Virus record (IMG/VR): IMGVR_UViG_2703718819_000006 | Direction: 5' to 3' (one strand) | Length of the DNA: 64,000 nt | Source: a virus | Lineage: Duplodnaviria > Heunggongvirae > Uroviricota > Caudoviricetes | Shown: positions 24,881 through 29,105 of the stretch, in pieces | Layout of the letters: the number at the start of each line of letters is the position of its first letter | Numbering within the stretch: the stretch's first letter is position 1 | Notes under the pieces: model-generated | Database searches by the model: none | What the model was told of the DNA's origin: nothing | Seen by the model: the letters and a program-made list of their open reading frames with translations, nothing else | Program-made: the position numbers and the translations under genes

Positions 24881-25134
24881 GTGTTTTTCCTTTGTGGTTA
24901 TTTTGATACAAATTTTAAGAGCAATGAGAAGGTAAACAACTATGCATAACGGTATGTTAGGAATGAAACGAGCGCATTAATATACAAAATTTATAAGTAA
25001 GTATATACCTATTTGTTGTGACGCAACTTTGCTTGTCTGTATGACTAAAAATAAGACAGGATCACTGTAGAACGCTATGAGAGCTATTTTGAGGGGGCGT
25101 AGATTCTATCTACGCCAATATACGATCTGGAGGG

Positions 25135-25779
25135 TTACAGCGCGTCAGTGGGCTTTTTACGCGCTGCGTTTATGCTTATGACGCCAGCTTTTGGACGTGG
25201 GTCAACAAGGTTAAGCTCTTCTTCACTGTGGTATTCGAGGTCGAACTCACGTTTTACATGTCTGATGTAGATTGCGGTGAGTAGGCTATCTTTGGTCAAA
25301 AAGTGTCCGTAGGATTTGCGGATCACTTCTTCAACCTTCTCGATTTTCTCACCACCCATGCAGAGGTGATTAAACCGGCTGTGTTTCCGCAACATCTCGT
25401 CAACTGGGCCTGAGTAAACCTTGTCTACTTTCCCAAAACGAATGATTTTTCCTGTATCTGCGGATACAAGGCAAATCAGTTTGTCTGGTGATAAACGATC
25501 TCGCCACGTCACACCTGAACGGAGTGTGTTGAAGTAGGGGGCATCCAATCCGATGATCGGTTTACGAAATGCGAGCAATGGAACGTACCTAATACAACTA
25601 TTCAAATGAAAGTTCACACCAGCCTTATCAAGTTTAATTCTGGTTTCGTAGATCGGGCACTTCGCCGCTATACCGCAGATATCACAAAGTAACTTCTGCT
25701 TATTCAGGTTGGAATTTGATTCGATAGTGTAGGAGCCGTCCTCAAGACGACGAACCCAGCGCGTGCGTTTTAGATCCAT
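25135..25779 (-). CDS. hypothetical protein adjacent to origin
   Basis: ORF track. Confidence 0.5.
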   Translation of the reverse strand: MDLKRTRWVRRLEDGSYTIESNSNLNKQKLLCDICGIAAKCPIYETRIKLDKAGVNFHLNSCIRYVPLLAFRKPIIGLDAPYFNTLRSGVTWRDRLSPDKLICLVSADTGKIIRFGKVDKVYSGPVDEMLRKHSRFNHLCMGGEKIEKVEEVIRKSYGHFLTKDSLLTAIYIRHVKREFDLEYHSEEELNLVDPRPKAGVISINAARKKPTDAL

Positions 25780-25865
25780 AATCGTTTTTTCAGTAGTTAT
25801 TGGCCGATGCTACGATAACTCATTAGGCATACCTTAATCTGCATTTGCCTGTTTACTTATCCCAG

Positions 25866-25874
25866 TTATCCACT
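25866..25874. promoter_or_regulatory. DnaA-box-like sequence (TTATCCACT) next to GATC cluster
   Basis: 8/9 match to TTATCCACA; adjacent repeated GATC sites. Confidence 0.4.
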
Positions 25875-25977
25875 GGATAGATCCAAATAAGAGATCCCAA
25901 GTAAGATCAAATAGAAGATCCAAAGAGATCCCCGATCGCCTCTAGCCGTTGCGGTTACTGGTCTGAAAGGGTGTTGC

Positions 25978-26080
25978 CATCCACTATGGAGAGCAAAGAA
26001 ACCTCTGTAGAGAGCTGAATAACCGCTATGAAGAGTAAAACAACCACTCTGGAGAGCTGTATATATCCACTGTAGAGAGT
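25978..26080. repeat. iteron array A (5 direct repeats of ~16 bp, ~21-22 bp period)
   Basis: Repeats of consensus ATCCACTATAGAGAG. Confidence 0.75.
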
Positions 26081-26238
26081 AGAGCACATTGTCTTTTATG
26101 GATAACTTAATGACTTAATTCTTCATTAACATACTGATATACATAGATATATTTTAAACTCTACTCTTAGTCATGATTCTTATGTCCTTAAATATCCACA
26201 GAAGAGTAGAGTTACCTGTTCTTGAAATCCTCTGATTT

Positions 26239-26247
26239 TTATCCACA
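26239..26247. promoter_or_regulatory. DnaA box (TTATCCACA)
   Basis: Perfect 9-mer in AT-rich segment between iteron arrays. Confidence 0.5.
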
Positions 26248-26357
26248 GGCCCGATCCAGTAATTCAGATCACAAAGAGAACCAAAGAGACCCATAAAGAC
26301 CCAATAAGATCCCCGCCCACCTCAAACCGTTGTGCCATCTGCCTTCAGACATGATCG

Positions 26358-26480
26358 ATATCCACTATAGAGAGCGAATAATCCACTATAGGGAGCAAAG
26401 CAACCACTATAGAGAGGAGAAAAACCACTATAGACGGTAGGATAACCGCTGTGATGAGTGCTACTATCCACTGTAATCAG
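26358..26480. repeat. iteron array B (6 direct repeats) immediately upstream of repA
   Basis: Repeats of (A)ATCCACTATAGAGAG at ~21-22 bp spacing. Confidence 0.8.
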
Positions 26481-26521
26481 CAAAGGCCACCAAAGCCGTC
26501 GAATAACAAGAGACATTTGGA

Positions 26522-27577
26522 ATGAGCGAAAACGGCAATAAAAACATAGCGATCGTTGAAGCATTTTCAGAAACAGATAAAAAGACAGGCGAAGTTGTTA
26601 CGTTGGTTCCTAACACTAATAACACTGTTCAGCCTGTTGCTTTGATGCGTCTGGGCCTCTTCGTTCCGACGCTGAAATCGACATCCAGAGGAAGAAAGGG
26701 GCAAATGGTCTCTATGGATGCCTCTGCTGAACTCAAACAGCTGTCTCTGGCAAAAGCCGAAGGGTACGAAGACATAAGGATCTCTGGCCTTCGGCTTGAT
26801 ATGGATAACGACTTTAAAACGTGGGTGGGAATAATCCACGCGTTTGCCAAACACAAGGTCGTTGGCGATACTGTCACGTTGCCGTTCGTTGAGTTTGTAA
26901 GGCTGTGTGGCATTCCGACCGCCAGGTCATCAGCGAAGTTACGCAAACGCCTGGACAGTTCGCTAAGCCGTATTGCCACAAACACCATCTCGTTCCGTAG
27001 CAAAGGCTCTGATGAGTTTTACGTAACGCATCTTGTGCAAACGGCAAAATATAGTGTCAAGCACGATACGGTCGAACTGAAAGCAGATCCCAAGATTTTC
27101 GAACTCTACCAGTTCGACAAAAAGGTTCTTCTGCAACTCCGGGCTATAAACGAACTCTCAAGAAAAGAATCCGCTCAGGCGCTTTATACTTTTATTGAAA
27201 GTTTGCCGCCTGATCCGGCACCAATATCACTAGCCCGTTTACGCGCCAGACTTAATCTGACAAGTCGCACTATTACTCAGAATGCGACGGTAAGAAAGGC
27301 TATGGAACAGCTGCGAGAGATAGGATATCTCGATTACACGGAAGTTAAGCGCGGAAACTCGGTCTACTTCGTCATCCACTATAGGCGGCCAAAGTTACGC
27401 CAGGCACAAATATCAACAAAAATCGATAATGATGAGACGGAATATAGCCTCCCAGATGAGAATCAAGATGACATTATCGACGTTGTGCCTGACGAAAAAG
27501 AAGGCAAAATGGTCATGTTGAGTAAAGAAGAACTGGCACTTCTCGAAGAGTTGCGCAAGGCAAAGACTCGCAAATAG
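26522..27577 (+). CDS. repA: plasmid replication initiator RepA (P1 RepA family)
   Basis: [42 protein letters not shown] and [12 protein letters not shown] closely recall P1 RepA; flanked by iterons. Confidence 0.85.
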
Positions 27578-27580
27578 CCC

Positions 27581-28060
27581 AACCACTGTAGTTAGTAGTA
27601 AGGCTCACTATCCACTGTAGTGAGCCTTACTTATATCTGTAATTCGCTATCCACTATAGTGAGTATCGTTATCTGTTGATAACCACTGTAGGCAGTAGAA
27701 TGCAAATACTGAATTAAATGTTAGTGATCACTAACACTGATGAAACAAGGGCTGCGAGGTTAGTGGTCACTGGGTATCTTGGAAAATTTACTGTCTATAG
27801 TGGTTGTTGTCGCCCTCATCTTTGAGCGTATCCACTGTGGCGAGTGGATATCCACTGAAAACAGCAAAGGCTTACTCACCATAGTGGATACCCGCTGGAC
27901 ATCTCACTCCAATACTCACCATAGTGGTTGTTTGATGCGAATGAAAGGCTGTCTACTCGCTACAGTGGTTAGCAGATATGTAGGAAGGTTTTGTTACTGA
28001 CTACAGTGGATAATGAGCTGGATACGAATGCGGTGAGCAGACTACTCACCGCAGTGGTTG
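27581..28060. repeat. downstream iteron array (incA-like), repeats in both orientations
   Basis: About 11 copies of CCACTGTAG / CTATAGTGG-type repeats. Confidence 0.75.
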
Positions 28061-28109
28061 GTGCTATTAGTGTATTTTCTTCAACAGACCCCAAAGTGTT
28101 CAGGCTTTT

Positions 28110-28279
28110 GTAGTCAGTTTTCCTGTTTCTGGATCGTACATACGCCATTCACGCCGCTGGTGGACGATATACCCATCTTCACGTTCCAGACGCTCAAGAA
28201 TGCCAGGCTGCTTGAAACCCTTAGCACGCCAGTAGCCGCTTGTTTTCTCGATTTCCAGACCTGCCAGTGTTAATGCCAT
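28110..28279 (-). CDS. small hypothetical protein (55 aa), below ORF-track size cutoff
   Basis: AGGAGG RBS; ATG overlaps stop of upstream gene (TAATG). Confidence 0.35.
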
Positions 28280-28614
28280 TATCCAACCTCCTTGCAGTCA
28301 TCGAAAAGGTAGCTTTGCTGAGAAGCGTGAACGCCATAGAAGCCCTTGTATTTGTTGTATACGAAGTGGTCTTCTCCGACGCCGGTTAATTTGCCATTAC
28401 GGTTTGTGAGATATGGGGATGACAACACTCGATCGTCACGCACAACATAGAACTGGTCGCCGCTGTCTACGACCATCGCTCCATATGGTGCTTTTATGAC
28501 GTCGGTAAGAGCGCCATTCTTAACGTCGGCTACAGACATTTCACACTGATAAACAGTGGTGTCGGCCACAACGATCGAAGAAAGGAACAACAGCGCAAAT
28601 GGGATGGCCTTCAT
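28279..28614 (-). CDS. secreted protein with N-terminal signal peptide
   Basis: MKAIPFALLFLSSIVVA signal-like N-terminus. Confidence 0.5.
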   Translation of the reverse strand: MKAIPFALLFLSSIVVADTTVYQCEMSVADVKNGALTDVIKAPYGAMVVDSGDQFYVVRDDRVLSSPYLTNRNGKLTGVGEDHFVYNKYKGFYGVHASQQSYLFDDCKEVG

Positions 28615-28790
28615 GCTGCCACCTCTTTGATTACATCAAATGCTGAATTAAATACGAGCACGATAGCCAAAGCGTTTATGACTACGTCGTTCACCGGGGA
28701 AAAGACTTTACGAATGACACCAGTGAAAATGCAGTCGATGACAAAAGCTATTGACACGATGAGTAACAAGTATTCAATAAAAATCTTCAT
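28611..28790 (-). CDS. small membrane protein (58 aa), below ORF-track size cutoff
   Basis: Hydrophobic helices; stop overlaps ATG of downstream gene (ATGA). Confidence 0.35.
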   Translation of the reverse strand: MKIFIEYLLLIVSIAFVIDCIFTGVIRKVFSPVNDVVINALAIVLVFNSAFDVIKEVAA

Positions 28791-28829
28791 GATAGGTAGA
28801 TACTAACTTATATAAATTTTACTGTAAAC

Positions 28830-29105
28830 TCACTCAAAAGTGCTGATGCTTAAAATACGCTCAAGATGTGCGGCATCTTCATCACTGATTTGTTGAGTCT
28901 CTTCTACGTACCAACAGTTGCCGTTATGCCAACAAACACCATCATCATCAACCATCACTGAATCAGCGTCATGACCTGTATATTCAACGAGAATACGCTG
29001 GATCAGTGCGTCAGTTTCTTCGTCGTTAAGGCCATCGGCTTTGACCATAAAAAGCGGAAACACGTCATAGACAGTGCTGGTAACGATTCGAACTAAAACT
29101 CTCAT
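28830..29105 (-). CDS. hypothetical protein
   Basis: ORF track; conserved leader. Confidence 0.5.
   Translation of the reverse strand: MRVLVRIVTSTVYDVFPLFMVKADGLNDEETDALIQRILVEYTGHDADSVMVDDDGVCWHNGNCWYVEETQQISDEDAAHLERILSISTFE

Follow-up and report, generated by a model that had tools for sequence, protein, structure and literature searches.

In the annotated record of bacteriophage P1, the plasmid replicon contains one origin module, i.e., a DnaA site, five Dam sites and five incC iterons at 21–22 bp, with the repA promoter (PrepA) lying inside the incC iterons and nine incA iterons at 30–41 bp following repA. Single heptamer changes can inactivate the P1 origin, oriR, and Dam methylation is required for it. 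The RepFIB replicons of F, P307 and pO157 are arranged as iterons BCDD′D″, repA and iterons EFGHIJK, and that of F (F-FIB) possesses a single core followed by irregularly spaced, divergent iterons, without a second core or a 21-bp-phased double array. Initiation sites that lie apart from autorepression sites, or several origins that serve one initiator, are known from the ori2/repE operator of F RepFIA and from R6K (alpha/beta/gamma); the operator or extra origins of these plasmids are not tandem copies of a complete module, and their initiators are distant Rep_3 relatives. Here we describe the replication region of a 64,000-nt stretch of DNA from a tailed virus (IMG/VR record IMGVR_UViG_2703718819_000006; the whole stretch is referred to below as the window), in which two successive copies of an oriR-type module precede the initiator gene repA.

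The 2.3-kb replication region of the window is 99.9% identical to that of the Escherichia phage-plasmid Cyrano, an SSU5-like phage-plasmid of E. coli LF82, and 83% identical to Salmonella phage SSU5. Matches of at least 99% identity were found in about 100 complete plasmids (E. coli, E. albertii, Shigella), and matches of 80–90% in 270 further plasmids of Yersinia, Enterobacter, Salmonella and Citrobacter. In the annotation of Cyrano, the sole gene between an ASCH-domain gene and a cra-like gene is that of the "RepA replication initiation protein". The region is the plasmid-maintenance replicon of an SSU5-like phage-plasmid, i.e., an iteron-controlled theta replicon of the P1 RepA/RepFIB family, and the same replicon is carried by pMT1/pFra of Yersinia pestis, by pHCM2 of Salmonella Typhi (IncFIB(pHCM2)-type) and by phage SSU5. 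The family and type of this replicon are already known; the tandem double module, its distribution over a clade and the asymmetry of its two halves are apparently new, as no description of a double module was found in the searched literature (pHCM2, SSU5, pMT1, and RepFIB with iterons), a search outside which the original pMT1, pHCM2 and RepFIB papers lie.

Anatomy of the replication region

The two-unit layout of the window is conserved, at 77–81% identity, in pMT1, pHCM2, an Enterobacter plasmid and an E. coli variant (77%), which are referred to below as the four relatives. Its elements are as follows, with iterons called by a scan with a position matrix built from the repeats; GC denotes G+C content.

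25857–25874 (+): tandem DnaA-box-like 9-mers TTATCCCAG and TTATCCACT, which align with the tandem DnaA boxes CACTTATCCACATTATCCACT of P1 oriR
25876–25940 (+): distal GATC-heptamer core with six Dam sites, at 25880, 25893, 25905, 25917, 25927 and 25934
25941–25977 (+): distal GC-rich spacer between heptamers and iterons, 54% GC
25978–26082 (+): distal iteron array, five direct 19-bp iterons (matrix scan, 18.0–28.1 bits)
26083–26227 (no strand): inter-unit spacer, 28% GC
26097–26105 (−): inverted DnaA box TTATCCATA directly after the distal iterons; TGGATAACT is invariant in the four relatives
26239–26247 (+): perfect single DnaA box TTATCCACA
26249–26315 (+): diverged proximal heptamer core, with GATC at 26253, 26267 and 26308, GAACC at 26278, and GACCC at 26288 and 26298
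26316–26358 (+): proximal GC-rich spacer, 53% GC, with one GATC at 26353
26359–26483 (+): proximal iteron array, proposed repA operator, six direct iterons (matrix scan, 15.8–25.1 bits)
26459–26467 (+): putative extended −10 element of the repA promoter, TGCTACTAT, between proximal iterons 5 and 6
26522–27577 (+): repA, 351 amino acids, Rep_3-family initiator
27580–28060 (no strand): downstream control array, incA-like, 12 iterons (matrix scan; orientation ++++-++-----)

The distal unit (25857–26082, or to 26105 with the trailing inverted DnaA box) reproduces the P1 origin closely, with tandem DnaA boxes, GATC heptamers, a GC-rich spacer and five 19-bp iterons at 21-bp phasing. These iterons start at 25978, 25999, 26020, 26041 and 26064 (spacing 21, 21, 21 and 23), and the GC-rich spacer has the position and length (~40 nt) of the GC-rich stretch in P1 oriR. 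From the DnaA boxes through the first iteron, the alignment of the distal core with annotated P1 oriR runs base for base, at ~65% nucleotide identity, and the cores of F-FIB and of the SSU5-like plasmids of Klebsiella, E. coli O104 and Cronobacter align likewise. The distal core is canonical, being 60–66% identical to the P1, Klebsiella, O104, Pantoea and Cronobacter cores, and in an alignment of the four relatives all six of its GATC sites are invariant. Because the inverted box trails the iterons, the distal unit has DnaA sites on both flanks; equivalents of this box occur in Pantoea (locus L006) and in two loci that possess a distal core only (L055 and L030; see below).

The proximal unit (26239–26483) matches the P1 origin core only in part, i.e., with one DnaA box and three of six GATC sites. 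Of the tandem boxes, the first is absent, with TCCTCTGATT in its place, and the core contains an extra heptamer relative to the other cores; its three non-GATC heptamers are identical in the four relatives. This core is an outlier, with 43–51% identity to the P1, Klebsiella, O104, Pantoea and Cronobacter cores and 48% to the distal core of its own replicon. The sequence CCGTTG and its flanks are common to the proximal and distal GC-rich spacers, and the six proximal iterons are spaced by 21, 21, 21, 21 and 22 bp.

RepA carries the Pfam domains Rep3_N (1.3e-10) and Rep3_C (1.3e-4), and NCBIfam and PDB sequence searches with it returned no match. It is a full-length homologue of P1 RepA (49% identity over 267 of the 286 residues of P1 RepA), from which it differs by a 65-residue C-terminal extension. 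The closest characterised initiator is the F RepFIB Rep (60–65% identity), while the Pantoea and Moellerella initiators are 69% and those of pMT1 and pHCM2 91–92% identical; an alignment of 10 initiators contains 77 invariant columns. The P1-type assignment made by the first-pass annotation is borne out by this homology, by the origin core and by the order of origin iterons, repA and control iterons, which is that of annotated P1. Also shared with P1 are the irregular downstream array of mixed orientation and the setting, a prophage-plasmid replicon of a phage-plasmid. Unlike in P1, the module is present twice, the promoter motif occurs in the rep-proximal copy only, the iterons number 11 + 12 rather than 5 + 9, and their sequence is ATCCACTRTAGAGAG rather than GATGTGTGCTGGAGGG. 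The same core of DnaA boxes and GATC heptamers lies upstream in RepFIB, and relatives of the window (pMT1, pHCM2, Enterobacter, E. coli) are typed as IncFIB by MOB-suite/PLSDB; judged from the sequences, RepFIB-type is the nearer label, and both labels hold. Cross-incompatibility with F-FIB is doubtful, since the iteron sequences differ.

The reading that repA is flanked by iteron arrays and preceded by two units of ~375 bp was likewise sustained, with five and six iterons upstream (11 in total) and 12 downstream. True iterons score 15.8–28.1 bits, and the scan of the 64-kb window returned no site above 15 bits outside 25978–28060. The two units align with each other at an offset of 373–381 bp, with the main self-alignment diagonal at 381. 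This similarity extends beyond the iterons, because the iteron-free parts (25855–25975 against 26228–26356) align with a local score of 42, whereas dinucleotide shuffles gave 17.2 ± 2.8 (z = 8.9) and 0 of 2000 reached 42. A chance resemblance, an assembly artefact or a recent, functionless neutral duplication is therefore extremely improbable, given this shuffle result, the ≥ 99% identity in about 100 independently assembled complete plasmids and in Cyrano, the 77–81% conservation in pMT1, pHCM2 and Enterobacter, and the conservation of both units above the neutral baseline. The anatomy and the homology of the replicon are as described above, and of this we are highly confident. The claim of two copies of the same unit holds insofar as the unit is duplicated, but the copies are not equivalent, as the proximal one lacks half of the Dam sites and one DnaA box.

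Two open reading frames of 73 and 80 amino acids had been dismissed in the first-pass annotation as translated iterons. They are indeed spurious: both lie on the minus strand over the iteron arrays, neither is annotated in Cyrano or the RefSeq relatives, and in pMT1 the frames are interrupted or reach only 44 and 61 amino acids. A similar effect is seen in RefSeq Rep proteins of 405 and 404 amino acids from SSU5-like plasmids (Klebsiella, locus L007, 3171–3290; E. coli O104:H4, locus L008, 3136–3255), which begin with MLSAVNDMLSAVRYMLPTV; this periodic N-terminal peptide comes from translated upstream iterons, so the start codons were probably placed ~40 codons too early. Within repA itself, an iteron-like 19-mer, CATCCACTATAGGCGGCCA, was found at 27373–27391 (+), in the codons for IHYRRP, with 15.5–18 bits depending on the matrix. 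It recurs at this position in pMT1, pHCM2 and the 77% E. coli variant despite a third-codon identity of ~67%, and is absent from the Pantoea homologue; it could be a RepA site or a by-product of the protein motif.

Distribution and descent of the two-unit layout

The comparison with P1 oriR and with relatives showed that the core is homologous to that of P1 and that the two units recur in the four relatives. In pMT1 and pHCM2, the upstream region is 80–81% identical to that of the window and likewise contains two units, with six and three to four GATC sites, and 11 upstream iterons. The duplication is a character of a whole clade and not of this element alone. Its extent was assessed in 80 species-level loci encoding RepA relatives of 62–91% identity, whose upstream regions were scanned with an nhmmer core profile and the iteron matrix. 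Two cores, 198–402 bp apart (median 350), were found in 40 of these 80 loci, from Kluyvera, Buttiauxella, Yersinia, Rahnella, Erwinia, Pantoea, Cedecea and Xenorhabdus. A distal core alone, with the rep-proximal iterons and the promoter motif kept, was found in 11 of the 80, plus Moellerella. Three of these distal-only loci (L055, L030 and L022), read directly, contain a canonical distal core with 5–6 GATC sites, phased iterons, a coreless stretch of 150–230 bp and then rep-adjacent iterons. A single rep-proximal core, as in P1, was found in 28 of the 80, i.e., 25 of the Pantoea megaplasmid type, two of Photorhabdus, and L028, whose upstream flank is cut by a contig end; the one remaining locus (L040) is truncated by a contig end.

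The reverse loss, i.e., decay of the distal unit, was seen only in locus L059 (−457 to −57 from rep), on a contig (DASXXQ010000321.1) of a Buttiauxella metagenome-assembled genome (MAG). Of its distal unit, a core scoring 22, three GATC sites and one iteron remain, beside an intact proximal unit; a second replicon of this MAG (L049) has the normal two units. Among closer relatives, single-unit deletion variants were not found in the sampled PLSDB matches, where coverage falls from 86–100% to ≤ 48% and the sole match at 86% is cut by the start of its record.

On a tree of RepA sequences, the two-unit and distal-only architectures form one clade, which includes the window, and the single-unit replicons (P1, F-FIB, Klebsiella/O104, Cronobacter, the Pantoea megaplasmids and Photorhabdus) lie outside it, with the exceptions of the truncated L028 and of Moellerella, which is read as distal-only. 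A tree of the cores groups 9 of 13 proximal cores, separately from the distal ones, and places the proximal core of the window and pMT1 on a long unresolved branch; both trees are neighbour-joining trees without support values. The penultimate heptamer contains no GATC in any of the 13 proximal cores of the core alignment. The single RepA clade, the clustering of proximal cores and this shared loss favour one ancient duplication, which fits these sequence comparisons better than repeated recent ones do. On the same three grounds, independent duplications in Pantoea and in the SSU5 group are not supported.

Many Pantoea genomes (L067–L091, large plasmids) contain two related replicons on different contigs, the single-unit one with iterons GTTCACTGTAATCAG and the two-unit one with iterons AACCACTATAGCGAG. 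As the iteron sequences differ, the members of these pairs are suggested to be compatible.

Proposed roles of the two units

The asymmetry of the two units is consistent across the 41 two-unit loci (the 40 fetched loci plus the window). The hidden Markov model (HMM) of the core scores the distal core higher in 39 of the 41 and the proximal core higher in 2, and GATC sites are more numerous in the distal core in 39 and in the proximal core in 1, with mean counts per core of 5.4 and 3.5, respectively. The promoter motif is distributed in the opposite sense: TGnTAnnnT, which resembles an extended −10 element, occurs in the proximal array of 38 of the 41 loci and in the distal array of 2, and lies, where present, between the last two iterons. 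The annotated −10 element of P1 PrepA is found at about the same place, where the fourth incC iteron meets the fifth, and overlaps the fifth. The proximal iterons of two-unit loci, at −163/−142 to −57 from the rep start, occupy the position of the sole array of single-unit loci. We infer that the repA promoter is situated between the fifth and sixth proximal iterons. The sequence of the region that most resembles a sigma-70 promoter is TTAACA-16-TATATT, at 26126–26153 (+) in the inter-unit spacer; it was rejected as the repA promoter, because neither hexamer is kept in pMT1 or pHCM2.

Based on the asymmetry in GATC sites and HMM scores, on the placement of the promoter motif and on the lopsided loss of cores, we lean towards a division of labour in which the distal unit is the principal, P1-like origin and the proximal unit the repA promoter/operator; the proximal unit may keep some auxiliary origin activity. 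A complete oriR-type module would have been duplicated in tandem in the ancestor of a large enterobacterial clade, and the copies would then have partly split the ancestral functions (subfunctionalisation), the distal one keeping the origin core and the proximal one the promoter/operator. As in P1, RepA monomers bound to the five distal iterons, together with DnaA at the flanking boxes, would open the Dam-methylated heptamers, and SeqA could sequester the new origin at the distal unit. RepA bound to the six proximal iterons would cover the promoter and thereby repress repA, as the position and conservation of the motif suggest, and the 12 downstream iterons would titrate RepA and handcuff the upstream arrays, leading to low copy number and incompatibility in the manner of P1 incA or the FIB repeats E–K.

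Several observations weigh against this division of labour. Between the window and pMT1, the proximal core is 91% and the distal core 78% identical, against a neutral baseline of ~61–67%, with 88% for the distal iterons, 89% for the proximal iterons and 95% for the leader; thus, neither unit decays in the SSU5/pMT1 lineage, and the proximal core has some function there. Recent recombination is not supported as an explanation of why the proximal unit is so well conserved, since a 60-nt sliding identity profile shows no block-like switch. In the proximal unit, moreover, the DnaA box is perfect, the 21-bp phasing strict and the core-to-iteron distance still ~40 nt, so this unit is no decaying relic and could still fire. 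Its core may serve as a residual or alternative origin or in a DnaA/SeqA-dependent control of repA. In addition, the core of P1 itself carries one non-GATC heptamer (AGGTCCA), the −35 element of the proposed repA promoter is poor, and the L059 lineage survives with the proximal unit alone. The 41 loci are phylogenetically related, so their counts are not independent events, and, since canonical cores made up most of the input to the core HMM, its scores are biased towards the distal type.

The same observations bear on the possibility that both units are working origins, redundant or condition-specific, with a Dam/SeqA-sensitive distal unit and a Dam-poor proximal unit that would largely escape sequestration. 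Within the SSU5/pMT1 clade, the conservation of the cores and arrays of both units far exceeds the neutral baseline, the DnaA boxes, the 21-bp phasing and the core-to-iteron geometry are kept in both units, and losses are reciprocal (at least 11 lineages have lost the proximal core and one the distal), as expected if either copy sufficed. However, the losses are strongly one-sided, the proximal core has fewer GATC sites in 39 of the 41 loci, and the P1 origin, as noted above, can be lost by single heptamer changes and needs Dam methylation. We regard two working origins as possible, though hardly probable. A more specific form of this idea, in which both modules are live, the distal one Dam-rich and sequestrable by SeqA and the proximal one Dam-poor and coupled to repA transcription, seems unlikely on present sequence data. 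If true, it would provide the phage-plasmid, and likewise pMT1 and pHCM2, with a switch or hedge between cell-cycle-coupled and uncoupled initiation according to host, growth state or lytic induction, and would represent a natural origin duplication with regulatory divergence within one replicon.

Conversely, the proximal unit could be the sole origin, with the distal unit as an accessory control element that lowers copy number by titration, handcuffing or acting as a sink for DnaA and SeqA. The proximal unit does occupy the position of the sole origin in P1 and the single-unit relatives, its DnaA box is perfect in the window and its core is the better conserved one against pMT1, and additional iterons are known to act negatively on replication in P1 and FIB replicons. 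However, the lineages with a coreless proximal region keep a canonical distal core with 5–6 GATC sites, five phased iterons and flanking DnaA boxes. As any proximal core is gone in these distal-only lineages and the full distal core is kept, the distal unit must be the origin in them. Furthermore, a pure control array would need no heptamer core, GC-rich spacer or 21-bp phasing, and the downstream array keeps none of these. A sole origin in the proximal unit is accordingly a doubtful alternative to a distal origin with a proximal promoter/operator.

The first-pass annotation had described the stretch between the units as AT-rich, which is correct for the window and does not extend to the family. 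A spacer of 28–29% GC is confined to the E. coli lineage of the window, and the pMT1 group, including pHCM2, has 43–45% GC (median 43% over the 41 loci). Across the family, the spacer measures between 19 and 175 bp, and the identity between the window and pMT1 (61%) is near that of the third codon positions of repA (67%). The spacer was therefore rejected as an unwinding element, since its AT-richness is lineage-specific, its length variable and its sequence near neutral. One semi-conserved site lies inside it:

26192: DnaA-box/iteron-like site, ATATCCACA / ATATCCACAGAAGAGTAGAG

Downstream array and wider meaning

The downstream iterons are spaced irregularly, by 20–108 bp. Their number varies (12 in the window, 13 in pHCM2, 14 in pMT1 and 14 in the 77% E. 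coli variant), whereas the 11 upstream iterons are constant, and indels of ~41-bp units that contain iterons account for the differences. For FIB replicons, the downstream block has been found sufficient to displace the plasmid, and the upstream iterons are tied to the origin (PMC11983097). The array of the window begins at the end of repA, where a further element was found:

27597–27631 (+): terminator-like hairpin with a 15-bp stem directly after the repA stop codon (−30.7 kcal/mol, z = −5.45)

The loop and 3′ arm of this hairpin hold downstream iteron 2, so that RepA binding and termination could interfere with each other. The hairpin is conserved in the relatives, with a better T-tail there. 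An Rfam search of 25000–29000 gave no match.

In the middle of the downstream array lies a conserved, iteron-free block of ~65 bp (27715–27778). It contains a perfect palindrome, GTTAGTGATCACTAAC (27719–27734), and a related sequence, GGTTAGTGGTCACTGGG (27758–27774), and the sequence around them, AAACAAGGGCTGCGAGGTTAGTGGTCACTGGGT, hardly differs in pMT1, pHCM2 and the 77% E. coli variant. The block is possibly a binding site for another regulator.

An effect of the two origin-like units on copy number or incompatibility, as had been suggested at the outset, is plausible. Low copy numbers have been measured, 1.2–1.8 per chromosome for pMT1 (PMC13321490) and 5.5 for Cyrano in overnight cultures (PMC9928086). 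The GATC sites of pMT1 are almost fully methylated in Y. pestis except at four loci, none of which is described as lying at the origin (PMC13321490).

This replicon type maintains pMT1, pHCM2 and the widespread SSU5-like phage-plasmids of E. coli, Enterobacter and Citrobacter, and related versions maintain large plasmids of Pantoea, Erwinia and Rahnella. For replicon typing and annotation, it matters that the iteron arrays are repeatedly mis-called as open reading frames or as Rep N-termini, and the layout bears on the choice of the iteron block in plasmid-curing cassettes. In P1, the origin and autorepression roles are hard to separate genetically, because the same five iterons serve both. 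A lineage in which these roles are apparently divided would be a natural test system for how the number and placement of iterons relate to copy number, for whether Dam/SeqA control acts on initiation or on expression of the initiator, and for the evolution of origins by duplication and subfunctionalisation.

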